Part shown: piece by piece, positions 36,916 through 61,925 of the stretch | How the letters are laid out: every line of letters begins with the position of its first letter | Numbering within the stretch: the stretch's first letter is position 1 | From: an uncultured virus (IMG/VR IMGVR_UViG_3300031132_000335) | Lineage: Duplodnaviria > Heunggongvirae > Uroviricota > Caudoviricetes | Virus record (IMG/VR): IMGVR_UViG_3300031132_000335 | Strand: one strand, 5' to 3' | DNA: 64,000 nucleotides | Made by a program: the position numbers and the translations under genes | The notes under the pieces: model-generated | What the model saw: the letters and a program-made list of their open reading frames with translations, nothing else | What the model was told of the DNA's origin: nothing | Database searches by the model: none

Positions 36916-36928
36916 GGAGCGCGGACCT

Positions 36929-45003: not shown

Positions 45004-45162
45004 GATGTTCTCCTTGAAACTTTCGGGAGGCTGTTCCTCCCTGATGACTCAACTCTACACGATCTGAGCTGCGGCGCAACCTCAGGTTGGGAACTCTCAG
45101 AAAACAGGACTGGCCTGCATACTTAGAGCAAGCATGCAGGCCAGGGGAAAGGACGTGGGAAG

Positions 45163-45390: not shown

Positions 45391-45480
45391 GATGCAGTCC
45401 TTTGTGTTGGAGTGTCCAAGAGCGCTTGTGCGCCTGATCTGACCCTACCGTAGCTGATAGAGTCACGCAACCCGTGCGGG

Positions 45481-45735: not shown

Positions 45736-45935
45736 GGTCTCTCCTTCATCTGTCAGGGCTTCCGTGCTGCCCTGTTGTGTACAGCGTAGCACCTTCCAGT
45801 CGCACCGTGTCAACTGATCCGCAAGATTTTTCCTGAGAGTTTTCGTCTTTCTGAGACGAAGGTGTCAGAGCTTCTAACTCAGTCTGAGGTTCCCTGACCC
45901 TACATGTCTGGAAGTAGGGTCAGGGAAAAGACATC

Positions 45936-46121
45936 TTACTGCGCTTCCTTGCGGTCCAATCCGATGCGAATGAGGACCATCCCAGCAATGCCAATGACCA
46001 GACCTGCAATCGTGCTGGTCCAGCTCAGGGAATGCGGGAGGAAAGCAGTTGACCAGAAACCTGCGACGAAGACCAGTGCGCCGAGAATCATCCCGAACAC
46101 ACCCAGTGGAATCAAACGCAT
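45936..46121 (-). CDS. small membrane protein
   Basis: Two TM helices. Confidence 0.7.
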   Translation of the reverse strand: MRLIPLGVFGMILGALVFVAGFWSTAFLPHSLSWTSTIAGLVIGIAGMVLIRIGLDRKEAQ

Positions 46122-46234
46122 GAGACTCTCCTTTTCTGCTCATCAACGATGATGGTGGTTCAATCGTACCACACGTTCACCTGGCGTTTACTGAAAAATG
46201 ATCGGCTTCCCATTTTGCTTGGGAAGCTCTGAGG

Positions 46235-46495
46235 TCAGATGAGGCGACCGAGTTCCAGCGCTGCACTCATCAGTTCCTCCGCGTCCAGCATGTGCACCTG
46301 CACACCGTACCGCTCCCATACCTGGGTCACGGAGTCAGCGTTGACGATGCCAGCGACGGTGGCGAGCGTGGCAACCTGGGTACGGAGGAAGTCCAGCGCT
46401 TCGCCCTCGGGGACAGTACCTGCCAGGGAGATGACGTGGATGTTCCGAGAAGCGCTCTCAGCGAGGTAGTTCAGAGCCTCAGCAGTGGGGTTCAT
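46235..46495 (-). CDS. hypothetical protein
   Basis: AGGAG RBS. Confidence 0.7.
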   Translation of the reverse strand: MNPTAEALNYLAESASRNIHVISLAGTVPEGEALDFLRTQVATLATVAGIVNADSVTQVWERYGVQVHMLDAEELMSAALELGRLI

Positions 46496-46638
46496 CAGGT
46501 TGCTCCTGTTCGGGTAATTGGTGCGTACAGGTTCAGTCTACACAGTTGTCTTGCTGTATGCAACCAGTTCAGGCAAAAAAATAGGCCCGCAGCTGCTCTC
46601 AGCTGCGGGCCTTGCAAAAATTGAGGTCAGGGAGTGGG

Positions 46639-46728
46639 TTAGATGCCCAGTTCCTTCATGAGGTTCATGGTGTCGTCGCTGAACTCGTCAGTGCGGATGA
46701 AGCCGAAGTCGTCATCGTCATCGAACAT
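46639..46728 (-). CDS. 29-aa acidic micropeptide, copy 2
   Basis: MFDDDDDFGFIRTDEFSDDTMNLMKELGI. Confidence 0.85.
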   Translation of the reverse strand: MFDDDDDFGFIRTDEFSDDTMNLMKELGI

Positions 46729-46975
46729 GAGGTTCTCCTTGGTAGTGAAGTTGGTCTCTTGCTTGCTGTTGAGTACAGCCTACCACGAGTCGGACAGGCC
46801 ATGTCAAGCAGTTCCAGGAAGTTTTTCCTGAGGATCAGGTGACCACTCCCTGAGTAGCCGCCGGTGGTATCTGGCTACCTCAACGGGTACAGCTGTTGGG
46901 AAAAGACAGGGAAGCTGTAACCGCAGGGGATGAAGAAACCTCAGGTGAAATACTATCCCATGGTACGCTTGAACC

Positions 46976-48286
46976 ATGAGTAATGATCTGACTATTGTTG
47001 GCTGTGCAGGCTTTCTTGGTGGTACCGAAAAAGAGTTCAGGTTTTTTGAACCGTTAGTCCGTAACAGCAATGATGAGCTATTTGTCATAGGAACGCCGAA
47101 TCCTGCAAGTCTCAGTCATTTGATTCCTGCCCGAAAAGACGGCCCTCTCCTTCTTGACATCCCTGAGTCCATTCAAGTTCCGTACAAGGTCTCCTCTCGT
47201 GATGAAGCTCAAAAAGTCATTATTGCCGGTCCCCGAATTGTGGAGCTCCTCCTCAAATACTTGTCAGATGCACCACTCACTCAAAAAGTTCAAGACTGGC
47301 CCGTGGCTACTGATGCAGGTCATCGGGCTATGGTTGGCACTATTGAAGACATCCAGATAGAACGAGGACTTGCTGTGCAGCCTGCGTTCATCCAGGCGTT
47401 GCAAGAGCTGAAATCAGGCACTATTCGTGGCGAGGCTTACGATCTGTTCTACTCCATCTACCCTAATGAGAACTTAGAGGTTGTCGGCTACCTTGGCATC
47501 TATGCGACAGCAATCAACGATAAAGAGCTATTAGAAAAGCAGCTTGTTCTCAGAGCTGAACGCTTAGGGCTGTCAAAAGAGCATTACCGCACTCTCATTT
47601 CACAGATGTCTGTGGCTTTTGACCTAAGAGGGTTGGAGCCGAGCTTCACTGTTGTCGGTTTCGTCGGAGACATAAATGACCCGTATGCAAGCATGAAGCA
47701 GAACATGCCTGTGCTGGAAGATGCATACGGCAAGAAGTTCGTTATGGGTACCCCTGACCCTGCAAGTCCGAATCACCTTCTTCCAGCTGTTCCGTACCAG
47801 CATCTTCATCTGTTTGCAGATGAGAAGTTACGTCGCCCTTTCATTCCTTCCACAGCTCCTTTATTTGAAGAAGAGCAAACAGTCGCTACGGTCAGCTACG
47901 ATTGCTATTCTCGCTTGACTGCTGACTTTTTGAATGACCCGTTGACGCAGCAGCTCATCACATGGAGCTACTTAGATGCCACCATGCGAAAAGTTGCGGT
48001 AGTGAACCGTAAGCAGTTCGTTGCTGACCGTCAAGCATTCCTGCGCCGTTTGTTCCCTGTCATGATGGCTAATTTGGATGGCGGAGAGGGTGACCTGATT
48101 CGTCTGTTCAAATCATTTGTTCCTGTTGAGACTTTGGAGTACCTCAGCTTCCTCAGCTTGTATTACCAGTCAGCAGGGTATGACTCAGAGCGCAAAGAGC
48201 GTGTTGTTACTCGTGCAAAAAGACATGGAGTAACTGAGGAGGAATTCCAAGAGCTGGTGAAGCAGACAGCTCAGGAGTACCTCTGA
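46976..48286 (+). CDS. 436-aa protein with internal domain duplication (leaderless)
   Basis: GTPNPASLSHLIPA / GTPDPASPNHLLPA; RAERLGLSKE / RAKRHGVTEE. Confidence 0.8.
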   Translation: MSNDLTIVGCAGFLGGTEKEFRFFEPLVRNSNDELFVIGTPNPASLSHLIPARKDGPLLLDIPESIQVPYKVSSRDEAQKVIIAGPRIVELLLKYLSDAPLTQKVQDWPVATDAGHRAMVGTIEDIQIERGLAVQPAFIQALQELKSGTIRGEAYDLFYSIYPNENLEVVGYLGIYATAINDKELLEKQLVLRAERLGLSKEHYRTLISQMSVAFDLRGLEPSFTVVGFVGDINDPYASMKQNMPVLEDAYGKKFVMGTPDPASPNHLLPAVPYQHLHLFADEKLRRPFIPSTAPLFEEEQTVATVSYDCYSRLTADFLNDPLTQQLITWSYLDATMRKVAVVNRKQFVADRQAFLRRLFPVMMANLDGGEGDLIRLFKSFVPVETLEYLSFLSLYYQSAGYDSERKERVVTRAKRHGVTEEEFQELVKQTAQEYL

Positions 48287-48341
48287 CGCAAAAAAGTAAG
48301 GCCCCTCACCGAAAGTGGTGAGGGGCCTTACTGATGTAGTG

Positions 48342-48653
48342 CTACTGGGCGAGGAGTGCGACATGCACGCCAGCGACATCCGTCAGACCATGCGCTACCT
48401 TGTGCTGCGCCAGTTCGTAGATGTAGCCCAGGGTGCCGTAGGTGAGAGCGTAGTCATCGCACTCAGTGCAGCGGGTGAGGAAGATACCTTCACCGATGTG
48501 AGCGGAAGCTCCGCGAGGGATGATGTCTTCGGAGAACACGGGGGTCTCCTGGTACTTCGCCTCGTTCTTCTGGAAGAACTCATCAAGGTCTCGGACGTAC
48601 TTCGCGCCGAGGATATCAGTGCCTGCGATGTTGTTACCGATGAGGTTCGTCAT
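48342..48653 (-). CDS. hypothetical protein (leaderless), CxxC..H motif
   Basis: TACACT-6nt-ATG. Confidence 0.7.
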   Translation of the reverse strand: MTNLIGNNIAGTDILGAKYVRDLDEFFQKNEAKYQETPVFSEDIIPRGASAHIGEGIFLTRCTECDDYALTYGTLGYIYELAQHKVAHGLTDVAGVHVALLAQ

Positions 48654-48691
48654 GGTTTGAGTGTAACAGCTTCTACTGACAATGGGAAGGG

Positions 48692-48838
48692 TCAGTCCTG
48701 AGGCGCGATGTACTCATAGCTGCGAGCAGGGTGAGCTTCCTGCATCAAGCGCATCTGACGCTTCGCTTCACCCTCGTTGGGGAACCTGTGCGTCCACTTG
48801 CCACCATCGCGGTAGGTCTCAATAACGGTGAACTTCAT
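48692..48838 (-). CDS. 48-aa peptide
   Basis: MKFTVIETYRDGGKW..; AGGA RBS. Confidence 0.55.
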   Translation of the reverse strand: MKFTVIETYRDGGKWTHRFPNEGEAKRQMRLMQEAHPARSYEYIAPQD

Positions 48839-48871
48839 GATGTTTCAGTCCTGTCTTATCAGAGTCGGAGG

Positions 48872-49099
48872 TTAGAGCGTTGCCAGAGCCAGCGCAAGTG
48901 CAAGGCGAAGACGGAGGGTTTCTACCGAAGGCTCCCACTTTGCCTCATCGTAGCAAAGCATGTGGTAGATGCCACCCTCCATGTGCGCACGCACGATGGG
49001 GTAGCCCTCTTCCAGACCAGGCTCAATCCAGGCTTCTGGATTGCCGCAGTGCGAGCAGTATCCCTTTACGGTCGGGGTATTGGTCTCGGTAAGGCTCAT
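48872..49099 (-). CDS. putative Zn-binding protein (leaderless)
   Basis: CSHC..HMLC. Confidence 0.65.
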   Translation of the reverse strand: MSLTETNTPTVKGYCSHCGNPEAWIEPGLEEGYPIVRAHMEGGIYHMLCYDEAKWEPSVETLRLRLALALALATL

Positions 49100-49144
49100 A
49101 GTCTCATCGTAGCACGGTTACGCCGTATCCGCCAGGGCTTCTAC

Positions 49145-49318
49145 TCAGATTTCCATCCAAGCTTCCGTGTAACAGTTCTCATGGTACCACTTGCGAACGA
49201 AAGTATCCCAGACTTGATCCAAAACGGGGTCGTATTCCCTGTGAAGCTCCCTGCCATCATCTATCTCACACCAACTGCATACCTTTTTCTTGACAGCTGG
49301 TTTGCCCAACTTGAACAT
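49145..49318 (-). CDS. 57-aa Zn-binding paralogue of 10896
   Basis: CSWC..DPV..WYHENCY. Confidence 0.7.
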   Translation of the reverse strand: MFKLGKPAVKKKVCSWCEIDDGRELHREYDPVLDQVWDTFVRKWYHENCYTEAWMEI

Positions 49319-49439
49319 GCTGGTTCTCCTATCTTAGACAACCAGCATAGCAGTCAACGAAAAGAGGCTTACCTTCTCGCAATTTGAGCGAGAAGGTAAG
49401 CCTCTGGTGAGTCTCAGTTGGAACGGTTTGCTTTCCTGC

Positions 49440-49637
49440 TTACACGGTCGCAGTAATGCGACGCTTGACGATGAGCTTCTCAATGTGCAGAGCTGCCACC
49501 ACGAGAACCGCAGTAGTGATGATGAGGATGGTCGCAGTCTTCACCAGCGACTCATACGGGATGTAGATGGAACCGATGGCGAAAGCGAAAAAGACGAACC
49601 CCATGAGGGTCAAAATGATGTTGCTGAGGTACTTCAT
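49440..49637 (-). CDS. small membrane protein
   Basis: Two TM helices. Confidence 0.7.
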   Translation of the reverse strand: MKYLSNIILTLMGFVFFAFAIGSIYIPYESLVKTATILIITTAVLVVAALHIEKLIVKRRITATV

Positions 49638-49787
49638 GAGTGTGTCTCCTTCGTGGTTGTGATGATGTTGAGTGTAGCTGAATCTGGAACCAAGAGCAAC
49701 TGTACTCAGCCATGTCACAGCTTCTGGAAAAAGACAAGGGTTGCAACCTGTTGAGGTTACAACCCTTGTGGAGCTGGAAGTTCGTAC

Positions 49788-50078
49788 TTACTGCTTCGGC
49801 GGGAGCGTTGCCAGAATCTCTGCAATCTGGACGTACGCTGCCGTGGAGAACGTGACCTCATGACCATCCGAGGACATGGCGAGGATGCGCTGCGCGCCGA
49901 ACACAGGACGGTGCTGGTGGAAGATTTCAGCATCAGGGTCAGCCTGCTTGCTGCGGTCAGGAGTGTACTCAGCCACCACATCACGAGCGGCCTGCGCCCA
50001 GATTTCCTTCTTGATGGGGTCGGTCTCACGGTTCGCCTTGCTGTTGAAGGTCTGAATGAGGTTCATCGCTGCGTCCAT
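49788..50078 (-). CDS. hypothetical protein (leaderless)
   Basis: TACTCT-6nt-ATG. Confidence 0.7.
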   Translation of the reverse strand: MDAAMNLIQTFNSKANRETDPIKKEIWAQAARDVVAEYTPDRSKQADPDAEIFHQHRPVFGAQRILAMSSDGHEVTFSTAAYVQIAEILATLPPKQ

Positions 50079-50190
50079 AGTTCAAGAGTACACCTCTCAG
50101 GCCACCAGTGCAACTCCTCTGTCAAAAGCCTTGCTTCCATTGCGAGGATGCGATATACTACGAGCTAAACATTAGAAGGAGAGACCGACC

Positions 50191-50490
50191 ATGTTGAACG
50201 CCCAGCAGGTAGCTACCGCCCAGAACCGCTTACGCATGCCAAGCCGTAAGGATGAGGCGGAGTACGCCGCAACCATACAGAAGTCCAATGAGCTGGAAGA
50301 GCAGTTCATCCAGTACCTCCACCACACGCACGGACGCGGCCTTCCAGAGAGCGTGCAGAAGGAAATCTACGAGCGCGCTCAGTGGTACGGGGATGGGTAT
50401 ACCTACGAGGAGTTGGAGTCCTACTACAAACGGGACGCTGACTGGCTCCGTGAAGCTATCGCTGCTGTCCAGAGCGAGACCAAAGCCTGA
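50191..50490 (+). CDS. helical paralogue family member 1
   Basis: MLNA..QFIQYL..HG..A..G.GY. Confidence 0.8.
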   Translation: MLNAQQVATAQNRLRMPSRKDEAEYAATIQKSNELEEQFIQYLHHTHGRGLPESVQKEIYERAQWYGDGYTYEELESYYKRDADWLREAIAAVQSETKA

Positions 50491-50605
50491 GCGTTCCCTG
50501 AATTTTTAGTTTTGGGTTGCATCCGAGTTGGCAGGTGTGTACTGTGGGTATCACCGCAGCGGCGAACGGATCGCTTCGGAAAAGACGAACAGGAAGAAGA
50601 ACCTC

Positions 50606-50890
50606 ATGCTGAACGCCAATGAACTCAACGAGGCCATCAAGAACCTCAACTACCCTTACGGCAAGAAAGGGTTCGAAGTACACAACGAGTACGCTCGTCA
50701 GGAGCGTGAGCTGGTTGCCCAGTTCCACGCCTACCTGGACGAGGAGCACGGCTACGACCTGAACGGGCAGCAGCAGAAGACCGCCCACCAGTTCGCCTAC
50801 AACGCGAGCAACGGTAGCGGCTACCACGACTACGAGGCTCAGTACATTGAGGCGACTGAGTTCGCGCGGGAGATTCTCGCCACCGCGTAA
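50606..50890 (+). CDS. helical paralogue family member 2
   Basis: QFHAYLDEEHG..NGSGYHDYE. Confidence 0.8.
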   Translation: MLNANELNEAIKNLNYPYGKKGFEVHNEYARQERELVAQFHAYLDEEHGYDLNGQQQKTAHQFAYNASNGSGYHDYEAQYIEATEFAREILATA

Positions 50891-51016
50891 CACAAGCGAC
50901 AAACCAGGAAAGTCCAAGTCTGGAATATGGCTTGGACTTTCCTGGTTACACGATCAGTACTGAACAGGTACCATGAGCAGTACATTTTTGATAAGAACAA
51001 CCAGAGGAGAATCATT

Positions 51017-51292
51017 ATGATGATTGGCATTGAAGCGGACCAGGCTTCCCGTAGTCTGAGCGACCTGTACTACTCTGACCGTGATGAGTACCGTCGCCAG
51101 CAGGCAGACATCAAGGCGCAGTTTACTGAGGCCATGCATTGCCAGACGGAAGACCTTCCTGAGGCAGTTCGGACGCTCATGTTCCAGAAGGCATGGGATG
51201 ACGGCCACGCTGGTGGTTACCATGAGGTTCAGAACCACTTTGAAGAGCTGGAAGATTTCGTTCGCAAGGTTGTTGACGAGGTATCCAAGTAG
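51017..51292 (+). CDS. helical paralogue family member 3
   Basis: KAWDDGHAGGYHEV. Confidence 0.8.
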   Translation: MMIGIEADQASRSLSDLYYSDRDEYRRQQADIKAQFTEAMHCQTEDLPEAVRTLMFQKAWDDGHAGGYHEVQNHFEELEDFVRKVVDEVSK

Positions 51293-51421
51293 CGCATGCA
51301 ACCCTTCATGTCAGTCATTTCTCTGCTGACATGAAGGGTTGCACAATCACCATTAGTCGTGTAGATTTGATATCGCAGCGAACAACAATTCACTGAACAA
51401 TGAAACCGAAAGAAGAGCATC

Positions 51422-51706
51422 ATGCTTGATTCCGCCGCAGTTGATGAGGCCATTCGCAATCTTCCCTTCCCTGGGTATGGTGTCTCAGACGAACTCACTG
51501 CGTACCTGTGGAAGGAGAAGGAACTCACAGACCAGTTCCATGAGTACCTGAACTTCCAGTACGGCGATGGGTTGAATGAATTCCAGCAGCGACGAGTGCA
51601 TGCTTTCACGCTCAACGCATGGAATGGCACTGACTACTCTGACTACGAGGCTCACTACGCGGCAGCAGCACAGCTTGTCCGTGAAGCTCTGTCTGAGGTT
51701 CAGTAA
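51422..51706 (+). CDS. helical paralogue family member 4
   Basis: Close to 50606 (DEAIRNLPFP..QFHEYL). Confidence 0.8.
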   Translation: MLDSAAVDEAIRNLPFPGYGVSDELTAYLWKEKELTDQFHEYLNFQYGDGLNEFQQRRVHAFTLNAWNGTDYSDYEAHYAAAAQLVREALSEVQ

Positions 51707-51841
51707 CACTCAGGAAGAAGTGCATTCTTCCTCCCAGCCTGATGAAGGTCTGTAAAAAGACATGAAGGCTGTGATCTTGTTGGTACGGTGGAAAGAAGCT
51801 TTGGGTAAGCAATCCACCACCCAAACAAGAAGGAGAGCATC

Positions 51842-52123
51842 ATGCTCAACACACATGAATACCACGTAACTTTCAACGCAGCTCTTCGTGAGCGTTACCG
51901 CAGGGAAACGACAAGCGAAGAGCTGGCAGAGAAGATAGAAGCAATCAAGGTTCAGTACCGCGATTACCTGGACTTTACGTTCGGAGCGGAGCTGAACACA
52001 GCACAGCTTGACTTGGCGTACCATTTCGCAGAGAACAACTACTGCGGTGAAGATGGCATGACATTGGAGGACCGTTTCTCCGAAGTCTGCGACTTGATGC
52101 GAGCTGCATTCGCTGCACAGTGA
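51842..52123 (+). CDS. helical paralogue family member 5
   Basis: QYRDYLDFTFG.ELN..Q..AY.FA. Confidence 0.75.
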   Translation: MLNTHEYHVTFNAALRERYRRETTSEELAEKIEAIKVQYRDYLDFTFGAELNTAQLDLAYHFAENNYCGEDGMTLEDRFSEVCDLMRAAFAAQ

Positions 52124-52200
52124 GAACAAGAGGGAGACAAGGCCAATAAAGGTCTCGTCTCCCTCTTGTGTTTCCAGGAGTCACATGTTACGATCAACCT

Positions 52201-52824
52201 ATGACTGCACAGAATGACACGCTGCGGAAGCAGCTCGGTATCATCATCGCTGAGGGTGACCAGAACGACCATGCGTTCATCCTCACCGCACTTCAAGCTG
52301 CCTCTGATGCTTTGCGTGGAGCTGACCTGACGATTGACTGGCTCCGCAAGGACTGGGCAAAGCACAAGAACGAGCTGGATGAGTGGACTCCGAACGAGGT
52401 GTCCTACGGCATCCTGAACAGCTCTGATGCGCCGCGTGACCTGGTTGCGTTCCATCAGCCTGAGCCTGTCCGCTACCGTGTTCCTGAGGACGCAGCGACG
52501 GACCTGGCTGGTGGGTTCATCCGCAAGGTTGGAAAGTACGTCTCTGTGCACAAGCCGCTTGCCTTCGCACTGTCGGAGGAGGATGCAGCAGAGCGCTGGG
52601 AGCTGGGCCGCTTCTCCTACGACGAGACCGCTGTCGGCGTGGACGCATCTGATGTTCTCGCAGCTCGGGTGGATGACGCTCGTCGTGAACCGAGCGGGAT
52701 GCTGATTCCTCTGGACCTGGCGGATGGTGTCACGTGCCCGAACAAGCACGTCCTCGCTTCGGCACAGCTACTTCGGAAGCAGGCAGAGCAATTGGTGCTG
52801 ACGCTTACTCCCGAAGAGGACTAA
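52201..52824 (+). CDS. hypothetical protein (leaderless)
   Basis: TACGAT-6nt-ATG. Confidence 0.75.
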   Translation: MTAQNDTLRKQLGIIIAEGDQNDHAFILTALQAASDALRGADLTIDWLRKDWAKHKNELDEWTPNEVSYGILNSSDAPRDLVAFHQPEPVRYRVPEDAATDLAGGFIRKVGKYVSVHKPLAFALSEEDAAERWELGRFSYDETAVGVDASDVLAARVDDARREPSGMLIPLDLADGVTCPNKHVLASAQLLRKQAEQLVLTLTPEED

Positions 52825-52980
52825 GCCCTTCTATTCAAGGAGGAGGTAGCCAGAAATGGTTACCTCCTCCTTTTGTTTACCCTTTCGTAAAAAGACATGA
52901 GTAACGCCCTATGAAAATGGGATGAGAAAAATCCATTTGGTAGAATAGGTCTTATCCCCAATTCTTCCCAGGAGTTTCCA

Positions 52981-54081
52981 TTGTCCCAACCTGTCTACGG
53001 CATCGTAAATAGTAACCGCGATTTGACAAAGGAATCATCCTGGGGCAAGAACCAGTTCAATAACTTCATGCCTGTCGCCTTACTGAGTTGGATGAACGAT
53101 AACGATTACACCATTGGTGAAATCAGTCTGACTGACGAGCTAACCCCGAAGAACACTTCACGCATTCCGTCAGAAGTCTTCCCGTATCTGAGCCAGGAGC
53201 ACAAGAACCTCCGCTACGACTTTGAAGCGGAAGCTGACACCTCACTAGTTGACCCGAGCTATCATCTGCGCCATGACTGCGTGGTCAAAAACTTTACGAC
53301 CCAAGAGTCTTTGGCAGCTCTGGAAGTCAAGCTCACAACCTTCCCTGACTTCTCTACCCAGAACCTCCCTAGAGAGCAGATGGGGTCTGAGCTGGTTGTG
53401 CGCCCTGACACTATCGTCGGCATTGCTGACAGTGTAGCCGCACGGAATACGCTAGCTGATAAAGCGCTTGAAGCTGTTCAAAAAGTAGCAGCGTCTGTTC
53501 GTGAAGCAGGTAATGATGCAGCAGCTCAAACAAACCTCCTCCCTTCGGTCCATACTGCGGTGTCAGCTATCTTACGGAACGCTCATAAGCAGCAGAAGCC
53601 CACCCTTCTCCAAGCCATTTGGAACACAATGGGCGAGCAAAACGAGACAGACGGGGTGAAGAACTTCACTGACATCTTCGTATGGACAGACAGCGCTCTC
53701 CTGCACCTCTGCCTAGACGCGAAGCTCACCTCTCTCACGAGGTCCCAGAGGTCACTAGTGTGGTTCCTCCTGATGTGGGATGACGCAGTGCAGAACAAGC
53801 TCATCACTCCTGACTCAGTAATCAACACATTCACCTTCTCCACGAAGAACGACAAAGCGTTCTCTGTTGGTGGGAAGACGACGAACCGCTACTTGCGCAG
53901 TGAAAGGCTTGTAGCTCCGTCCGTGCCAGAGCGAGTCCTCTACAATGACATCACTGATGTGGAGCACATCCGCTATTTGAAGCCTGAGCGCCGGTTAGAT
54001 GCTTGGCTGGACTCCCGAGCTGACTTGTTCGTTCTCCTAGACGACGATGAAGAGGATGAGGTCCTCGGCGAGTTGGAGTGA
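52981..54081 (+). CDS. HindVP-family type II restriction endonuclease (family recognises GRCGYC)
   Basis: NSNRD..SWGKNQFN N-terminus; HD..LEVKLT PD-(D/E)XK core; GSELVVRPDTI; KNDKAF; PERRLDA C-terminus; AGGAG RBS with TTG start. Confidence 0.85.
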   Translation: MSQPVYGIVNSNRDLTKESSWGKNQFNNFMPVALLSWMNDNDYTIGEISLTDELTPKNTSRIPSEVFPYLSQEHKNLRYDFEAEADTSLVDPSYHLRHDCVVKNFTTQESLAALEVKLTTFPDFSTQNLPREQMGSELVVRPDTIVGIADSVAARNTLADKALEAVQKVAASVREAGNDAAAQTNLLPSVHTAVSAILRNAHKQQKPTLLQAIWNTMGEQNETDGVKNFTDIFVWTDSALLHLCLDAKLTSLTRSQRSLVWFLLMWDDAVQNKLITPDSVINTFTFSTKNDKAFSVGGKTTNRYLRSERLVAPSVPERVLYNDITDVEHIRYLKPERRLDAWLDSRADLFVLLDDDEEDEVLGELE

Positions 54082-54570
54082 GCGGAAACTCTTCTTCTTT
54101 TTGACGACATCGCCGGTTGGTTCAGCTCTGACCGGTGATGTCGTTCTTTGCTATAGCTCGCCAGCTACAGGTCCGACACCACCGGTCAGCTCCGTCACTA
54201 TATAAAAGGGGGTCTAATGGTTTGGTTACCCTCTCACTTCCGCATGAAATCAACGAAGTAGGCGGTTGTAATAGTAGCAAAAGACGGAAATTTTTTGACT
54301 TGCTACCAGGTCGGAGTATGGTCTCAGCTCCGCTTCCGGTGGATGGAGCTGGCCCCGCAAATAGATCAGGAACAGCTCGGACCGGGCCATATAAAGAGGG
54401 GTCTAATGAGAGGCCCTGCCCGTACTTCGTTGATTTCATGCGGATCGGGGAAGCACATGGCTGACAAAAGACGGCAAAATGAGAGCTTCCGCGTGGTTGC
54501 ATGTGGGCTCTGCCGGGCCGGCATTCGTTGTGAGGAGCTCGCTAGAAGGAACTCGTGGGGAGCTCTTAGA

Positions 54571-54620
54571 CGCTAGACAGCCGGTGAGCTCCTCACATGG
54601 AACTCACCGGCTGTCTAGCG
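54571..54620 (-). terminator. 18-bp perfect hairpin downstream of rpmJ
   Basis: CGCTAGACAGCCGGTGAG-N14-CTCACCGGCTGTCTAGCG. Confidence 0.6.
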
Positions 54621-54634
54621 CAGGGGGCTTCTGG

Positions 54635-54751
54635 TTAGCCCTGACGCTGCTTGTGACGAGGGTTGGCAGCGCAGATGACCTGGACAACACCATTACGCCT
54701 GATGGTGCGGCACTGGTCGCACTGAGGCTTCACGCTTGGACTGACTTTCAT
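54635..54751 (-). CDS. rpmJ: 50S ribosomal protein bL36 (Zn-ribbon type)
   Basis: Hand translation [38 protein letters not shown] (38 aa); intact CxxC..CxxxxxH; AAGGAG RBS. Confidence 0.95.
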
Positions 54752-54874
54752 GAGCTTCTCCTTTCCTCCTGCTTCAACGCAGGAGAGAGGTCTTTCATTC
54801 CTCCTATGTTAGAGGGCATGAAAAAAGACACGAGTAGCAAGGTACGCTACTCGTGTCTTTCAGTAGAGGGGGTA

Positions 54875-55090
54875 TTAGCTGAACGTCGGAGGGGAAGGAA
54901 CCAGCTCCTTGCTCACCAGACGGCTCATGATGGTGAGAACGTGCTTCTCCGCCTCATCCTTGTCCAGACCGAGAGTGCCGTATGCAATCATCTCCGCCTG
55001 TCCGCGCACGTAGTTCCAGTGCGAGGTCTTCTGCATGTTGGCCTGCTCACACAGCGAACGACCGAGCAGCAGCATCTGGTAGTAGTCCAT
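54875..55090 (-). CDS. hypothetical protein
   Basis: ORF with downstream hairpin. Confidence 0.6.
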   Translation of the reverse strand: MDYYQMLLLGRSLCEQANMQKTSHWNYVRGQAEMIAYGTLGLDKDEAEKHVLTIMSRLVSKELVPSPPTFS

Positions 55091-55216
55091 GATTTTTTCT
55101 CTTCTCTCTCAATATGAGCTGCGGTATCAGCTCATGTCTCCACACTACCAGGCACCTCTGACAAACACAAATGAGGGGAGCTACCAGTCTTGGTAGCTCC
55201 CCTCATTCAGGGTGAC

Positions 55217-55471
55217 TCAGGCGGTTGCTCGCTTCATGAGGACTCCGCAGTACACGATGAAACTCATGCCAAGCAGCACAGCGGTCAAAAGCGGAAGCAG
55301 CACCATAGCCCACAGCAGCGGGCTGATGACGGTAGCGGACGGAGCAGCCAACCAGATGAACAGGGCGAGACCGAACGGAACCAGCAGGATTGAGCGGACA
55401 GCACGGTTGAATGCGTCACGGTGCTTGCTACGGACCGTGACCAGACGGGTAAGAAGATTCTTCACGAGCAT
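55217..55471 (-). CDS. membrane protein
   Basis: Two TM helices. Confidence 0.7.
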   Translation of the reverse strand: MLVKNLLTRLVTVRSKHRDAFNRAVRSILLVPFGLALFIWLAAPSATVISPLLWAMVLLPLLTAVLLGMSFIVYCGVLMKRATA

Positions 55472-55617
55472 GAGTAGGGGGTTCCTTTCTGTGGGACTTG
55501 ACCAGTCTAACCGTTTGAAGCTTCAACCTCAACTTGAAGGGGAAACAGTTACCGCTCTGTGACAAATAAAAACACGCCCTACCAGTTTGCAGTAGGGCGT
55601 GTTTTTATGAAGCTGAG

Positions 55618-55938
55618 TCAGCGGATGTAGCCAAGCATGTAGTCCACGACGAGCTGGGTTCCCTGCTCCGAGGGACCATCCTCACCCTTCGCCTTCACAA
55701 GGGCTGCCAGCATCACGATGTCATCCTGGGTCTCCACGTGGAGCATCCGCTCGCCATCCTCATCCAGCGCCTTACGGACAGCGGCTGCCTTGCCGTCCAG
55801 ACGAACGTAGTTGGTCATGTCCAGCGACTCGTTGTTACGCAGGGTCAGCAGGTTCTCTTCGGCCGAAGCGAGACGGTTGATGATGTCTTCTCGGAAGAGC
55901 GTGACCTTCGGGTCCTTGGTGTTGATGATGTTTTCCAT
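55618..55938 (-). CDS. hypothetical protein, related to 56041
   Basis: DPKVTLFREDII..RLDGKAAAV. Confidence 0.75.
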   Translation of the reverse strand: MENIINTKDPKVTLFREDIINRLASAEENLLTLRNNESLDMTNYVRLDGKAAAVRKALDEDGERMLHVETQDDIVMLAALVKAKGEDGPSEQGTQLVVDYMLGYIR

Positions 55939-56040
55939 GAGAGTAACTCCTTCTTGGTTTGAGGGAGTCTGTTCTACCCTCTATCTACGATCAGTGTAGC
56001 AGGGTAGAAGCTGGGATGTCCAGCCCTGCTACAACCGTTT

Positions 56041-56382
56041 TTAGTGGCGGTACTCGGAGATGATGTAGTTCGCTTCACTGATACCGCTCATCTTCGCTTT
56101 GTACTCATCGGTGAACCGCTCAGCAAGCGAAAATCCGAAGAATGACATGCGTCCCAGGAGAAGGCTCAGTGGGGCAGACTCGTTGTAACGGTTCAGGTTC
56201 TCCTGGACCTTCTCCTTGACAGCCTCCACACCTGCGACCTTACCGAGGAAGCGTGCACGAGCCTCTACCCCATTGCAACGGTCACGCATCTCAGTCAAAA
56301 GAGCGATGCGCTCATCCAACTTGCCGATGATTTCAGCGCGGAACTTCGTGGCCTTCGGGTCAGCCGTGAGGGTGTCAGTCAT
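56041..56382 (-). CDS. hypothetical protein, related to 55618
   Basis: DPKATKFRAEII..RFLGKVAGV. Confidence 0.75.
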   Translation of the reverse strand: MTDTLTADPKATKFRAEIIGKLDERIALLTEMRDRCNGVEARARFLGKVAGVEAVKEKVQENLNRYNESAPLSLLLGRMSFFGFSLAERFTDEYKAKMSGISEANYIISEYRH

Positions 56383-56442
56383 GAGGATTCCTGTCCGTTA
56401 TAAAGATGAGGAAGCGAGTGCTTCTTACTCAGTGTAACACGG

Positions 56443-56829
56443 TCAACCTGTGGTGGCAACTACTTGGATGGAAATCAGCTTCTTGTCCTCGTTGAAGGTT
56501 AGGTAGTCGCCTTTTCGGGTACGATCCCATTCGGTCTTGCTGAGCTGGTAGGTCTTGTGCTTATCCCCTGCGGTGATGACGACGAACCAACGGTCGGGGT
56601 AGCTGACTTCTTTACAAGCAGAGACTTTGACTGGCCCTCCAATGAGATGACATTCTTTCCCCAGATGAGCTGGGTCGTACCGCTTCTGGGAAAGGACACC
56701 TTCATGGATAGGCTTTGAGGAAACGAAAATGGCGCAGATGATCCCAATGAGAGCTATCAAAGCCAATACCATGACAATGCGGAACTTCCAGTCAACGTCA
56801 GGATCGTAGATTGATTGTTTCTCAGTCAT
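56443..56829 (-). CDS. membrane-anchored Cys-pair protein, paralogue 1
   Basis: TM + G.L..K..PA..C..C..PDRW..GDYLTF. Confidence 0.75.
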   Translation of the reverse strand: MTEKQSIYDPDVDWKFRIVMVLALIALIGIICAIFVSSKPIHEGVLSQKRYDPAHLGKECHLIGGPVKVSACKEVSYPDRWFVVITAGDKHKTYQLSKTEWDRTRKGDYLTFNEDKKLISIQVVATTG

Positions 56830-57217
56830 TGGATGTTCCGATGTTTTTGACAGCTTGCCCGTTGATGCTCGTGAGATGATGGTGCTTGAAGACCAGGTGA
56901 TCGCCTTTGCTTACCTGGTTCCATTCTTGTTGGCTGAGGTCAAAGTTGTTTCCCTTGTCTCCCTTGTTGATGATGACGTACCACTTGTCAGGAGAGTATT
57001 GTGTGCAAGACGTGGGTACTTTACCTGCCATGCAGGTGCCTTTATATTCATGAGCTGCGGAGAAGTTCTTCTCTGTCACTATCCCGTCCTGAGGTCCAGC
57101 CCACAATAAACGCAGTAAGAAGAACAAGCCGATGAGGGCGAACAGCACTGCAAGCAACCTGAGGTTTACTTTCCAGGCAGGGGTAGCGGCTTTTGGAGTT
57201 GAAGTTGTCTGACTCAT
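56822..57217 (-). CDS. membrane-anchored Cys-pair protein, paralogue 2
   Basis: PDKWYVII..GDHLVF. Confidence 0.75.
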   Translation of the reverse strand: MSQTTSTPKAATPAWKVNLRLLAVLFALIGLFFLLRLLWAGPQDGIVTEKNFSAAHEYKGTCMAGKVPTSCTQYSPDKWYVIINKGDKGNNFDLSQQEWNQVSKGDHLVFKHHHLTSINGQAVKNIGTSND

Positions 57218-57461
57218 GGGTTCTTTCGGTGAGACTGGCGAAGGTGTTCAGTCTACCGCAAAAGAAGAAGCTCTCTCATTTTGCAGCAACTAATTATGAA
57301 GGGAGGTAGATGGTGACCAGTCTGAAATGAGACGGAAAATGCATGCAAATGTTGCATTTGTCAGTGGATAGGTGTAAGCTCGCTCATGCAAGACAAAATC
57401 CAACAATTCAAAACGGGGTTACTTGAACGCCCGTCAACAACAACAAGGAAGAAGTAAGACC

Positions 57462-57776
57462 ATGAACAAGGCAACCTATCTTGAAAAGTTCGCTGCTACC
57501 AAGGTTACGGACGACATGACCGTTGGTGCAGCAAAGGTGGCAGAGAAGAACCGAAAGGCGCTGGTGCGCTTTTGGGAGAAGACTGCACGGGCATACATTG
57601 AGAAGACCGAAGGCGTTGACTTTGATGCCATTGAGGTGAACTGGCGTAGAGTCGCCACGAAGGCAAATGCGAACCCTACGGGGGCAGTCACCATTCAGGT
57701 GTTCGCCTGTGACCAGTATCAGGCAGACAAGCTGGAAAAGACGTACCGTGTGAACAAGAACGACCTTTACACCTAA
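57462..57776 (+). CDS. basic hypothetical protein
   Basis: Promoter and AAGGA RBS. Confidence 0.7.
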   Translation: MNKATYLEKFAATKVTDDMTVGAAKVAEKNRKALVRFWEKTARAYIEKTEGVDFDAIEVNWRRVATKANANPTGAVTIQVFACDQYQADKLEKTYRVNKNDLYT

Positions 57777-57918
57777 GAACTGCGAAGAGCGTGACAACCA
57801 GGCATTTCTGGTTGTCACGCTCTTTACTTTTCCTCACCGATCTTGTTGGCTGTGCAACCTGAGGTAAAAAGACAGAGACCTCAGCGAATACAAGCTGAGG
57901 TCTCTGTCTTTGAAAGAA

Positions 57919-58335
57919 CTACTGGGCGTTGACCGAGGTCAGGCTCTCTCCGTCAAAGGTGAGGTAATCACCTTCGTTGATGGTGTCCCACTTGTCCTGC
58001 GAAACCGAGAAGGAGTTCTTGTCGTCATCCTTGGCAATCGTCACGTTCCAGCTCTCAGGGTACGTGACAGGGGTGCAGATGGTGGTCTTACCGTCGTAGG
58101 AGTTGCACTGCATAGAAGTCGTTTCGGGCGTGTGGTCCTTCCCAACAACGCTTCCCTCGTGAATACCGCCCACATGAGCGGAGATAGCAACGATGTAGCC
58201 GACGATAAGGAGTACCGTACTGACCGCAAAAAAAGCCACGAAGCCTCCGATAACGAAGTTGACCTTGTCTTCCTTCCAGGACTCAGCCAGACGAGTGGTG
58301 AGGGGCGGCTTCGGCTTGGTCTGAGTGGCGTACAT
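57919..58335 (-). CDS. membrane-anchored Cys-pair protein, paralogue 3
   Basis: PESWNVTI..GDYLTF; cassette leader. Confidence 0.8.
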   Translation of the reverse strand: MYATQTKPKPPLTTRLAESWKEDKVNFVIGGFVAFFAVSTVLLIVGYIVAISAHVGGIHEGSVVGKDHTPETTSMQCNSYDGKTTICTPVTYPESWNVTIAKDDDKNSFSVSQDKWDTINEGDYLTFDGESLTSVNAQ

Positions 58336-58515
58336 GGTGTTCTCCTTGGAGTAGTTCTACGTGGGAGGCCCTTCCTCCCTGGCGATACCTACTCTACATA
58401 GATGGTTGTCCCTGTGCAACTGTTTTCACGAAAACTTTTCTGAGATTTCCCTGAGAGCGGACGCTGCCTCACCAATTCAGGGCCAGTTGACCACCAGGAG
58501 GGTCTTGCCTACTGC

Positions 58516-58794
58516 TCAGTTCACAGTGTGAGCTACCAACAGCCCACCAGCGGAGACAAGACCAATCAGGAAGAACGATGCAGAGACCCACATGATGCTC
58601 CGCAACGCTCCACCCAACGTGGTATCAATCCAAGCTTCGTACTCTTCAACAGCTTTGTCATCGTCATGCTCAATGATGCCTGTAACAAACCCGAGCCGAA
58701 TCATGAAGCTCACGTACAGCGTCACGCTGACCAGAGCTGTCACCAACGAAATGCCAGTAACCCAGCAGGCAAGCATCAGAAGCTGGATAATCAT
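58516..58794 (-). CDS. membrane protein
   Basis: Two TM helices. Confidence 0.65.
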   Translation of the reverse strand: MIIQLLMLACWVTGISLVTALVSVTLYVSFMIRLGFVTGIIEHDDDKAVEEYEAWIDTTLGGALRSIMWVSASFFLIGLVSAGGLLVAHTVN

Positions 58795-58870
58795 GAGGGC
58801 CTTTCGGGGTGTTTGGAGGAGGGGTAAAAGATCAACGTTCCACAGAGGTGATTCTGTGGAACGTCAGGGT

Positions 58871-59191
58871 TCAGATGTTCAGCGACTCGTTCGGGTCCGC
58901 GAAGAAGTTGCGGAAGCGGGTGCCGTCAAACCACTGCACCTTGGAGCGGTCGTGCGCGTCACCCGTGATGTACGGGAACACGCGGTCCAGGCTCTTCTCG
59001 GCAGCGCCGTGGATGATGATTGCAGGCTGCGCAATCTGCGCGCGGGTCGGCTTCGGGAACTTGAAGCGACGAACCTCAGTGCCGTCCTCCTTGCGAAGAA
59101 CAGCGGCCTTACCGTTCAGGAGTGCATCAACGACCTGCTCAGTGGTGAGCGAGTCGGCGTTCTTCGTGGTGGTGAAGTGCAAAGCAGTCAT
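58871..59191 (-). CDS. hypothetical protein
   Basis: AGGAG RBS. Confidence 0.75.
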   Translation of the reverse strand: MTALHFTTTKNADSLTTEQVVDALLNGKAAVLRKEDGTEVRRFKFPKPTRAQIAQPAIIIHGAAEKSLDRVFPYITGDAHDRSKVQWFDGTRFRNFFADPNESLNI

Positions 59192-59286
59192 GATGTTCTC
59201 CTGAGTGATGAGGCTGGCGGGTTGCCTACCGATGATCCTCAGCGTACACGCCTTTGGGAAAGGACGCAACCACTGTCAGGATGTTT

Positions 59287-59526
59287 TCAGCTGAGCTTGC
59301 TGAGACGGTAGATGAGGAGGGAGAGAGCAGTGATGTTGTCGTCCAGACCGAGGAGAGCCGTACCCTTATCACGACGTGCGACGAGGTTGGCGAGTCCCAG
59401 CTCCATCTCCCAGATGACCCAGTTCACATCCCCGTCGTGAGCGGACTCAATCGTGAACTGCTGCTGCAAGTAGGCAGGAGCGGTTGCCATGATGGTGGTG
59501 AAGTCGGCCTGCGTCTGAATGTTCAT
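59287..59526 (-). CDS. hypothetical protein
   Basis: ORF with upstream promoter. Confidence 0.65.
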   Translation of the reverse strand: MNIQTQADFTTIMATAPAYLQQQFTIESAHDGDVNWVIWEMELGLANLVARRDKGTALLGLDDNITALSLLIYRLSKLS

Positions 59527-59763
59527 GGGAGAGCCTTTCGGTTGGACTGGCTTGATGTCTTTGACTGTACACCTCAGGTCCTGAACTCGGTCCGCTTCTC
59601 CCAGGTTTCTGCCAGGTTACCCCTCTGATATTCGTAAACTGAGGTTTACTCCTTCCAGTCAGCCAGAAACCCCTCTGAGAAGCTCTGTGCGCCTCCCTGA
59701 GGGGTTTTGTCATGCTTGACGACTCGTTGTGTAGCTCAGCGAACAAACCAGCGAGAAAGGCTT

Positions 59764-60054
59764 CTATGCCTTACTGGCGTTCCGTAACCTCATCTGATCC
59801 ACCCAAGAGTTCTCACCATTGTACGGAGCGAGGAGGACCTCCCGCACGATGAACGGGTCGTCCATGTGAATAGTGGCAAGATGCTGTTCAAAAACTTCAA
59901 GAGTTTCCTGGTGAGCTCCTACGATTTCTTCGCCGGCAAGCCATGCATGAAGCTGTGGTTCTTCTACCCCGAAGACGTAGCTGAGCGTCAACCATGTCAA
60001 CCCTGACTTTTGCTGTGCCAGGTGAAGTCGCTCATTTGTGATACTCACACTCAT
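59764..60054 (-). CDS. XRE-like HTH protein
   Basis: SGLTWLTLSYVFGV...LHAWLAG. Confidence 0.55.
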   Translation of the reverse strand: MSVSITNERLHLAQQKSGLTWLTLSYVFGVEEPQLHAWLAGEEIVGAHQETLEVFEQHLATIHMDDPFIVREVLLAPYNGENSWVDQMRLRNASKA

Positions 60055-60299
60055 CGGGTGAGCGTGTCCACAATGCTGGCTCTGATAGCCACTGGAACGA
60101 AGAAGGTAGTGGAAAGCTTGTATCCCTGTTTCAGGTACTTCTCAATGTCATCGTTACGCTCAGTCAATGCACGAGCATGGTCAGCTTCATCATGGACCAG
60201 GTAATCATGGCTCAGGGTAACAACACGCTTGGCAGGAGCAAGGTCGTGACCAAGAAGCTCTGCTTCTTCTGTAAAGGATTGGGAGTTTAGGTCGGTCAT
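60051..60299 (-). CDS. hypothetical protein
   Basis: ATGA overlap with next gene. Confidence 0.6.
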   Translation of the reverse strand: MTDLNSQSFTEEAELLGHDLAPAKRVVTLSHDYLVHDEADHARALTERNDDIEKYLKQGYKLSTTFFVPVAIRASIVDTLTR

Positions 60300-60438
60300 A
60301 GGTTCAGGCTTTCATCAAAGGGACAACGGAGAACTATCAGCTTACATCAGCTCTTCAAAAAGACGAGAAATTAGCGATTAGGCAGGTCCTCGCGGCAATG
60401 TGCAAGAGATATGGTAAGCGCTACTTACTGTTCAAAGT

Positions 60439-60657
60439 CTAAGCTGTTTGTAAAAAGACATGAGTGGGGTCATCTTCCAGCACTGACCAAGTTTGGTCTC
60501 CCACCACATGCAATTGTGCAGCTCCGAGAAGACGAAGAACGGTGCTGGGGTAAATCTCAAACTCCTTCGCGCGGAAATAGTTCAGAATCTCCTGAGTAGT
60601 CATACTTCCATGCTCGCGCACGACTTCTCTGAGTAGCTCGGCAGTGACAATGCTCAT
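60439..60657 (-). CDS. small possible winged-helix protein
   Basis: VVREHGSMTTQEIL..STVLRLL. Confidence 0.5.
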   Translation of the reverse strand: MSIVTAELLREVVREHGSMTTQEILNYFRAKEFEIYPSTVLRLLGAAQLHVVGDQTWSVLEDDPTHVFLQTA

Positions 60658-60765
60658 GGCTTTTCCTTCCTCTTAGGACTCCACCCGTCTTGGTCTCATT
60701 ATCCGCACTTGGGAATCAAAAAAGCCAGAAGAGGTCTCCCTACTTCTGGCTTTCTGTCTTGTTGC

Positions 60766-61185
60766 TCAAACCGTGAGGTCTGTCAACTCCTGCACCTGAA
60801 TCATCATCTGGTTCATGTAATCGGTTGTGTGCGCGGCTTCGTTGAACTGAGGAGCCATCGCAGCAAGGCGAATCATGGCTTCCCAGTGTTCCTGGTCCCA
60901 GGTTCGCATCCATGACTCTCCGTACACTTCGCGGACGAGCTTCGTCTGTTCTGTAACAGTTGCATGCCAACGAGCCAGCCAGTCTTGCTGTTCCCAGATA
61001 CCTTCAATGTCCAGGATGCGACCGTCAGGAAGAAGATTCGCTGCGTGAAGCCAGAAGGACTCGTTTCCACTGACAGTCACAATGGGAAGGTCGTACATGT
61101 TTGCTCCCTCCCATGCAAGCACCCAGCAGTCACCGTCAGTGAACGCTTCACGTACCTGTGGAGGGAAATGGAACTTGATGGTCAT
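60766..61185 (-). CDS. hypothetical protein, paralogue of 63433 (leaderless)
   Basis: AFTDGDCWVLA..H..LDIEGI. Confidence 0.75.
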   Translation of the reverse strand: MTIKFHFPPQVREAFTDGDCWVLAWEGANMYDLPIVTVSGNESFWLHAANLLPDGRILDIEGIWEQQDWLARWHATVTEQTKLVREVYGESWMRTWDQEHWEAMIRLAAMAPQFNEAAHTTDYMNQMMIQVQELTDLTV

Positions 61186-61298
61186 GGGGTTCATTCTACA
61201 CCTCAGCAGCAGAAAATAGCAATCCCTCCAACCTACCCATTCAGTTGGAGGGATTGGAAAAAGACGAGCTACTCAGGTGCAGTTCTTTTTCTGGGAGT

Positions 61299-61925
61299 TC
61301 ACCGAACGTGCTTGGTGGTCTTCATAACCTGGACCTTGGTTCCCTTGACGAGGATGCTGATGCTGCCAGGAGCTTCCCAGATGTTGACGTAGCGCGCTGC
61401 ATCATAGCAGTGGATTTCCTCGTCCCACTCCTCAGAGTGGCGGGAGTCATACATAGGCCAGTTGTTCTCATCGTAGAGGATGTGCGGAGCAAGCTCAGCG
61501 TCAGCGTTCAGGGTGAGTTCGTGCACGTAGTACGTGGTTCCCTTGGTGCGGATGCCGTCCTTCGCTCGCTCCATTGCAGCCTCACGGGTGCCAGCGTGGA
61601 GAATGAAAGTTCCCTTTTCCCCGATGGTGGCGATTTCCTCAGCCCAGTTCTCCCGAGTCGTCGCGTGGAACCAACGAGCGGTCTTCGCCACATCATCGTT
61701 CAGGAGCTTTTCGGAGCGGCTGTCCACATCCACCCAGCAGTCTTCCATGCCGAACGTTGTCTTCGTCTGCTTCCCGCAGTACTGGCAGGAAAGCATCCAG
61801 TAGCTGGCCTTGCTTCGCTGCTGACCCCAGGAACGTCGGGTGATACGCTTGCCGCAGTTGTCGTTCGGGCAGACAACGCCCGTCTCGTTCGGGGAAGCAA
61901 CCAGCAGGTCTGTTCGGATGGCCAT
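61299..61925 (-). CDS. Zn-ribbon plus possible ADP-ribosyltransferase-like domain, paralogue of 62013
   Basis: CPNDNC..CQYC; WFHATT; LHAGTREAA; RYVNIWEAPGS; fold call tentative. Confidence 0.45.
   Translation of the reverse strand: MAIRTDLLVASPNETGVVCPNDNCGKRITRRSWGQQRSKASYWMLSCQYCGKQTKTTFGMEDCWVDVDSRSEKLLNDDVAKTARWFHATTRENWAEEIATIGEKGTFILHAGTREAAMERAKDGIRTKGTTYYVHELTLNADAELAPHILYDENNWPMYDSRHSEEWDEEIHCYDAARYVNIWEAPGSISILVKGTKVQVMKTTKHVR

Follow-up and report, generated by a model that had tools for sequence, protein, structure and literature searches.

A solitary HindVP-family restriction endonuclease gene on a giant virus-like element whose examined DNA has been cleared of GRCGYC

Restriction endonucleases are regarded as members of a pair, of which the nuclease is lethal without its partner methylase, and a gene for such an enzyme that stands alone raises the question of how its carrier remains intact. 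The question arises for a stretch of 64,000 bases from the IMG/VR virus record IMGVR_UViG_3300031132_000335 (the whole stretch is called the window below), in which an open reading frame (ORF) at 52981..54081 encodes a member of the BsaHI/HgiDI/HindVP family of restriction endonucleases (Pfam PF09519). An earlier note on this DNA proposed that the gene is a restriction weapon without a methylase and that its carrier is protected by avoiding GRCGYC, the site it ascribed to the family. As detailed below, the site is absent from all the DNA examined, its absence is peculiar to the lineage that carries the gene, and selection maintains that absence at present; the most likely reading, that the gene encodes a solitary active GRCGYC nuclease, with the carrier immune through lack of target sites, is one that we hold to be evenly balanced between true and false.

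GRCGYC occurs on neither strand of the window, for which 100 dinucleotide-preserving shuffles predict 74.64 sites (standard deviation 8.21), and each of the words GACGCC, GGCGTC, GACGTC and GGCGCC has a count of zero. For the non-palindromic pair GACGCC/GGCGTC, this zero stands against 37 expected from dinucleotides and 20 from a maximal-order Markov model. The 5-mer GRCGY is found 210 times (53 + 58 + 48 + 51) on the + strand and is never followed by C, as the earlier note had read from well over 100 instances. Variants with another final base lie near expectation (GRCGYT 135 observed against 133.0 expected, GRCGYA 137 against 104.9, GRCGYG 111 against 145.5), and the neighbouring words that the same note had called common are so, with 15 copies of AACGCC, 10 of TACGTC and 12 of AGCGCC. 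The avoidance is made by synonymous codon choice: none of the 67 Asp/Gly-Ala/Val dipeptides in 23 ORFs is written GRC-GYC, where codon usage predicts 7.0.

A metagenome collection was scanned with a 19-nucleotide (nt) form of AAAAAGACATGAG, a 13-mer that recurs in the window, and 67 stretches were obtained. The window lineage is represented by 23 loci, with GRCGYC at zero in each; once redundancy is merged, two other strains have 0 sites against 80.5 expected in 75,009 nt and 0 against 84.5 in 75,883 nt, and 20-kb stretches outside the overlap with the window are also site-free (0 against 17.3 in locus L107, 0 against 18.4 in L091). Relatives with the same motif and the same guanine-plus-cytosine (GC) content (L105, L116, L123 and L142, from contigs of 788,683, 70,405 and 61,745 bases) share proteins with the lineage at 37-57% identity and are unpurged, with 44 GRCGYC against 56.6 expected, 242 TCGA against 237.5, 175 CTNNAG against 290 and 66 TTAA against 96 in 55 kb. 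Lineage and relatives nonetheless have one purge in common, that of GRGCYC, AGGCCT, TCGCGA, CGGCCG, TGATCA, CGATCG, CTAG, CCGG and GATC. There are two purges, an older shared one and a younger one confined to the nuclease-carrying lineage, and GRCGYC belongs to the younger, so that avoidance tracks the gene-carrying lineage. A PF09519 gene was found in none of 21 loci of the lineage and relatives, the nuclease lying just outside the stretches returned.

The younger purge is not merely inherited. Substitution rates predict 7.7, 5.8 and 6.9 gains of GRCGYC in three comparisons between strains 2.2-3.2% apart, and there are none, although the numbers are small and the comparisons share strains and are not independent; eight control motifs match their expected gains (e.g. 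15 against 13.4, 23 against 23.6), and TCGA, CTNNAG and TTAA, strongly suppressed as they are, yet show 1-5 gains per comparison. The GRCGYC purge is maintained now by selection, and its absoluteness fits lethal self-cutting better than leaky host restriction, as far as such small numbers go. An erasure that is confined to one lineage, resides in codon choice and is enforced between strains 2-3% apart argues for selection rather than chance. The nuclease gene itself has been through this younger purge: it holds 1 instance of the lineage-specific motif set against 12.6 under synonymous shuffling (P<0.0005), as nine resident genes hold 0 against 65.4. CTAG, from the older set, stands at 6 in the nuclease gene against 3.3 expected and at 0 against 8.3 in the resident genes, and five of the six CTA codons of the nuclease gene precede a G versus 0 of 15 in 22 other ORFs. 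Since CTAG is unpurged and the lineage motifs are scrubbed, the gene arrived after the CTAG purge and was resident during the lineage-specific one. A very recent arrival, as its six CTAG might suggest, was rejected in view of the scrubbed lineage-specific motifs, CTAG alone being unpurged. The gene recurs at ~97-98% identity in two independent DNA runs from other studies, in one of which the contig over it has a word depth of 321.

The protein has the features of a working family member. It matches Pfam PF09519 (RE_HindVP) at E 8.7e-65 and 219.3 bits (cut-off 25) from end to end, with residues 21-350 aligned to profile positions 1-332 of 332, which confirms the full-length HindVP-family enzyme described in the earlier note; it passes no NCBIfam model. 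Every invariant column of a 24-sequence family alignment is kept, including D99, E115 and K117, a classic PD-(D/E)XK constellation with D99 in 'RHDCVV' and E115-V-K117 in 'LEVKLT'. WGKNQF is exact at residues 21-26, KNDKAFS lies at 289-295 (NDKAFS 290-295), and KPERRLD at 334-340 (PERRLD 335-340) differs from SPERRFD by S to K and F to L, with both arginines retained. BsaHI, HgiDI and HgiGI are reported to be active and to cut GR/CGYC, HindVP and a Crocosphaera homologue to lack the ExK motif (E130-V-K132 in BsaHI) and to be inactive, and the SPERRFD region to be essential (PMC2413257). That the family recognises GRCGYC thus rests on those three active enzymes and not on HindVP itself, and judged by ExK and SPERRFD the window protein resembles the active members rather than HindVP. 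The 15 members listed from a cluster at 90% identity (18 sequences) are all full length, with no shortened form, and keep D99, ExK and the signature motifs invariant at ~10% divergence, a pattern that points to a nuclease under purifying selection. A confident AlphaFold model (predicted local distance difference test score 85.5) sets D99 and ExK on adjacent strands. With this model, Foldseek finds nothing at E<=0.001 (top match MspI, E 0.2), the top nuclease by VIA-align is D212 (2w8m; Z 5.8, root-mean-square deviation 4.4 over 139 residues), and neither search finds a solved structure convincingly like it.

In cellular genomes, nucleases of this family come with a methylase. In the best 80 of 568 confirmed cellular loci, drawn from 600 candidate stretches, a PF00145 C5 methylase lies directly 3' of the nuclease in all 80 (78 called by Pfam, L024 by profile at E 8e-161, and L008 by the first 47 profile positions up to the contig end). 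The window, searched over 53 kb upstream and 10 kb downstream of the nuclease, has no recognisable counterpart, as had been noted before: Pfam finds no methyltransferase domain among its 124 ORFs, a profile of 78 partner methylases, run with filters off, finds nothing at E <= 10 in the window's six frames, and the top tblastn match reaches E 0.036. Nor was a methylase found in ~24 kb more of the same element beyond the window, by C5 methylase profile in another 21 loci from the lineage and its relatives, or in any Pfam class among 88 further ORFs of lineage and relatives.

If the evenly balanced reading is right, the gene would encode an active Type IIP endonuclease from the BsaHI/HgiDI family that has parted from its C5 methylase and most probably retains specificity for GRCGYC. 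Because the element's DNA offers no GRCGYC target, no methylase would be needed, and we infer that the remaining ~90% of the record likewise holds none. Every GRCGYC would have been reworded away, with selection removing new ones, and in an infected cell the enzyme would cut DNA with unmethylated GRCGYC, be it the host chromosome, plasmids or rival phages. Two orders of events can be envisaged, one in which an original restriction-modification (R-M) pair drove the purge and later lost its methylase, and another in which host pressure cleared the sites and so rendered a lone nuclease harmless. An active enzyme would mark a route by which a virus-like element makes a weapon against host or rival DNA out of a defence enzyme, at the price of thousands of synonymous changes in place of a methylase, and the purged and unpurged relatives provide a natural experiment.

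Recognition of GRCGYC by the window nuclease is suggested indirectly by the absence of the site from the element and by purged carrier genomes across phyla. In four whole genomes, the counts of GACGCC/GGCGTC against a reversed-word control are 28/3552, 10/5239, 76/7908 and 74/2415, with GACGCT normal, and such cellular counts support GRCGYC as the family-wide specificity. These genomes (G001-G004, behind loci L009, L018, L074 and L048) have a complete BsaHI-type R-M pair and have lost 97-99.8% of GACGCC/GGCGTC; their residual sites cluster (e.g. G003 contig 25, 243-284 kb) and may mark recently acquired DNA.

The same genomes, together with the divergence of the enzyme, the limited reach of the methylase search and the company that GRCGYC keeps among purged motifs, also weigh against a lone active nuclease, and feed the rival explanations. 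The one that survives best, a serious though unlikely possibility, is that the R-M pair is merely split, so that a C5 or multispecific methylase, or some other protective modification, lies in the remaining 90% of the record and the purge is ordinary self-avoidance. The adjacency of nuclease and methylase in every cellular locus and the empty methylase searches speak against this; those searches covered ~88 kb of a ~880-kb record, the description of the gene as methylase-free applies to those ~88 kb, and a separate methylase may lie elsewhere. Separated R-M pairs exist, with 19 of 74 solitary Type II enzymes predicted to belong to one (PMC3488263, Table 1), and methylases are described as frequent in jumbo phages (PMC13282480). 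Moreover, carriers with a methylase are purged as well: the 80 cellular loci pool to 82 GRCGYC against 504 expected (0.16), and in four of five whole genomes that carry nuclease and methylase together the purge is 30-500-fold, with 0.2-3% of the control word count left, so a split pair, too, would predict 64 kb without a site, and site avoidance is no proof that a methylase is missing. The four purged genomes were chosen for their site-free loci, which biases the sample, and the fifth, G005, is unpurged (774/409). For an element protected by methylation, on the other hand, there would be less reason to remove a dozen or so different sites, and GRCGYC is absolutely absent whereas the other purged motifs leak.

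Doubtful, in our view, is the explanation that host restriction imposes the purge and the nuclease is a harmless passenger, whether inactive, barely expressed or shifted in function or specificity. GRCGYC is one of four motifs purged in the lineage and one among about a dozen purged in the window, and no matching nuclease is recognised for any of the others, TCGA, CTNNAG and TTAA included, so that other drivers can cause such purges; the earlier note's alternative of host R-M pressure draws strength from these three motifs and is weakened, on small numbers, by GRCGYC being the only one of the four that never leaks. Purge can also exist or persist without the gene, since among G002 and 25 relatives all four genomes with the gene are purged, and of the 22 in which it was undetected 15 are unpurged and seven purged. 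The enzyme, too, is a far outlier, for which activity or specificity may have changed. It is 34% identical to HgiDI (P0056); its clade shares 31-37% identity with cellular members, whose mutual identity averages 48%; it has other residues at 11 positions (P96L and K215N among them) that do not vary in 21 cellular sequences; and a branch of ~7.6 changes per column, from a quick tree, separates it with full support from 57 other rows. An exhaustive search of 1.84 billion representatives gave 264 relatives and no intermediates; among the best 150, none exceeds 42% identity, that over a short fragment, and full-length matches reach at most 38%. A donor or host could not be read from the tree, the clade's branch being too long to place. 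HindVP offers the precedent of an inactive member (PMC2413257), and the gene starts with TTG. A passenger, however, is hard to square with a catalytic triad and three signature motifs kept throughout the listed cluster members, with a gene that has its own Shine-Dalgarno (SD) sequence, terminators and element-type upstream motif, that has lost the motifs purged in the lineage just as resident genes have, and that is retained in strains from other studies; the divergence agrees with a clade long evolving on its own under purifying selection. Quite improbable, finally, is the broader proposal that each lineage-erased motif (GRCGYC, TCGA, CTNNAG, TTAA) matches its own methylase-less nuclease among the orphan genes, with immunity resting wholly on site erasure, in which case the HindVP-family enzyme would be the one recognisable by sequence and CTNNAG would indicate a specificity that no enzyme is known to have.

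Table 1. Features of the nuclease locus and the window (a dot in the strand column marks features given without strand)
Feature	Position	Strand	Basis
GRCGYC-free DNA, 0 against 74.6 expected, by synonymous codon choice	1..64000	.	counts, codon test
Terminator-like hairpin, 16-pair stem then T run, closing the upstream gene 52168-52824	52837..52872	+	scan and sequence
Copy of the 13-mer AAAAAGACATGAG, 80 nt 5' of the start codon, candidate promoter or regulatory signal	52889..52901	+	motif count
TGGTAGAAT, possible extended -10 element, read by eye, not called by the scanner	52938..52946	+	inference
AGGAG Shine-Dalgarno, 6 nt ahead of the TTG start	52970..52974	+	sequence
PF09519 (BsaHI/HgiDI/HindVP-family) PD-(D/E)XK restriction endonuclease, solitary, 366 aa	52981..54081	+	ORF and Pfam
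Spacer with hairpins and repeats, in the slot of the cellular C5 methylase	54082..54640	.	sequence, profile search
Terminator-like hairpin, 18-pair stem, 22 nt past the stop codon	54103..54145	+	scan

The nuclease gene forms a bacterial-type, self-contained unit (Table 1). As the hairpin on its 5' side ends the preceding gene, the nuclease gene begins a unit of its own, which would comprise the upstream terminator, the element-type motif, AGGAG with a weak TTG start, and the downstream terminator. The one confirmed RNA run, X22, has contigs over several neighbours and none over the nuclease gene, a contig gap being no proof of silence. The motif AAAAAGACATGAG has 17 copies in the window (<=1 mismatch) from 6537 to 63930, all on the + strand, where 0.09 are expected, and is a candidate promoter or regulatory element, but might also be a binding site or a polar signal. 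Its copies often stand 40-130 nt 5' of + strand ORFs, with the consensus ~TGT-N9-11-TGAAAAAAGACATGAGTT, three of them form one arm of a hairpin, and in the two large records mentioned below the 19-nt form is confined to stretches of ~115 kb. The upstream neighbour was considered as a hidden methylase or inhibitor and rejected (no Pfam match; the Atlas scores, all <0.9 and from a poor model, carry no information), as was the spacer downstream as a decayed methylase, to which the methylase profile gives no match. That spacer contains a 22-nt perfect inverted repeat (54239-54260 / 54423-54444) and a 20-nt direct repeat (at 54200 and 54389), and has sequence blocks in common with 42.3-42.7 kb.

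Members of the nuclease cluster sit on contigs of 828,331 to 881,636 bases (JGI, ENA, Logan), and the AAAAAGACATGAG motif scan reached records of 878,612 and 883,042 bases; metagenomes of the phyllosphere, of plants and of leaf litter contain the carrier stretch (24 rows, 18 studies, with three rows marked as a possible source). The element thus recurs in independent assemblies as contigs of 828-883 kb, with a relative of 788,683 bases, is made up of orphan genes almost throughout and, in one plant-surface run, attains a word depth >300. The window is truly coding, with 32 open frames that reach 200 codons or more where simulations give 3.4, and the Pfam content of its 124 ORFs is limited to DUF3228, DUF6919, a helix-turn-helix and HEAT repeats; a tRNA scan and Rfam find nothing in it. 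The earlier note spoke of a phage outright, which the window does not establish: no capsid, portal, terminase or tail hallmark was found with PHROGs among 127 ORFs of the window, itself ~7% of the record, the matches being to families of unknown function (phrog_10980, phrog_3641, phrog_8077) plus a weak tail match at E 8e-4. Phage records yield no DNA match for the window and, among 50,697 of them, no match for the nuclease protein, and a peptide scan of viral contigs finds no relative. Three matches to the 19-nt motif in viral contigs are due to chance, lying in DNA of 30-31% GC without the purge. A scan of the metagenome collection with nuclease peptides is also empty, though the motif scan finds the lineage there, the nuclease lying outside the returned stretches.

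Directly upstream of the nuclease gene, a tandem array of five paralogous small genes (50191-52123, + strand; 93-121 aa, 21-32% identical) belongs to phrog_10980; the jumbo phages SCTP-2 and XacN1, as well as Cr30, carry relatives of it. A eukaryotic giant virus is disfavoured by AGGAG before several starts, intrinsic-terminator hairpins and the PHROG matches; the window-wide SD count is weak (19/117 against a background of 0.14). Neighbouring proteins (one of 436 aa; one with DUF6919) have relatives within this lineage only and give no taxonomy. The carrier is probably a very large phage of a plant-surface bacterium, a replicon of ~880 kb rich in orphan genes; as a phage it would exceed the 735 kb that a 2026 review gives for the largest phage genomes known (PMC13282480). 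Two of its few recognisable genes lie ~28 kb past the window (L107:16451-17551 and L107:2024-3592, both +) and encode a ParA/MinD-like ATPase and a protein with a TPM domain; the ParA-like gene could bear on maintenance of the element. Two more adjacent small-gene pairs, paralog-like by eye, lie at 55618-56382 and 56443-57217 (both -), sharing for example 'W.V.I..GDK......S..EW.....KGD.L.F'.

The depletion of other palindromes, which the earlier note had also remarked, extends to many motifs in the window, the observed and expected counts being 9/331 for CTNNAG, 6/297 for TCGA, 6/92 for TTAA, 16/171 for CTAG, 30/227 for CCGG, 10/94 for GRGCYC, 0/18 for AGGCCT and 0/18 for TCGCGA. All ten strand-merged word classes of CTNNAG stand at 0-3, a specificity for which no restriction enzyme is known to us. 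Homopolymers of six C or six G are rare as well (2 against 28). Purged motifs are concentrated, at close to the density of unpurged DNA, in two islands, 41200-42700 (24 sites, 16/kb) and 54082-54640 (18 in 559 nt, ~32/kb), with 0.49/kb elsewhere; the islands have sequence blocks in common and many hairpins and inverted repeats, and might represent either a mobile or non-coding repeat present in two copies or genes for structured RNA.

Among known systems, the closest are the BsaHI, HgiDI and HgiGI R-M systems (Type IIP, GR/CGYC, PF09519 + PF00145), with which the window nuclease shares the protein family over its full length, the ExK motif, WGKNQF, NDKAF and PERR(F/L)D. It differs from them in having no adjacent methylase, which all 80 cellular loci have, in belonging to the most divergent clade of the family, and in being carried by a giant orphan-rich element and not by a bacterial chromosome or small plasmid. 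The site of PacI is 8 bp long, made of A and T only, and rare anyway in a GC-rich genome. PacI of Pseudomonas alcaligenes has no methylase and its host genome no PacI site (cited in PMC3488263), so that the concept of a lone nuclease in site-free DNA has a precedent, with self-protection through missing target sites in place of methylation. The site in question here is, in contrast, a degenerate 6-mer of which ~75 copies per 64 kb, and by extrapolation ~1,000 per 880 kb, would be expected, and whose absence therefore took active erasure and is upheld by selection to this day; the carrier, moreover, is a mobile element, that of PacI a bacterium. Solitary restriction endonuclease genes on mobile elements with no linked methylase have been surveyed, with 12 found in 831 phages (Oliveira, Touchon and Rocha 2014, PMC4176335; see also Ershova et al. 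2012, PMC3488263), and in the parts of these surveys that deal with such genes they are counted without being linked to a matching site purge in phages. In the present case the matching site is absent, and selection still enforces its purge, which is peculiar to the lineage. Avoidance of palindromes by phages and bacteria was reportedly described by Sharp in 1986, by Gelfand and Koonin in 1997 and by Rusinov et al. in 2018, and the wholesale depletion of TCGA, TTAA, CTAG, CCGG, CTNNAG and several 6-mers resembles it. What sets the window lineage apart from ordinary palindrome avoidance is that an older set of avoided sites shared with relatives is joined by a younger, lineage-specific set, and that one avoided site matches a nuclease encoded by the element itself.

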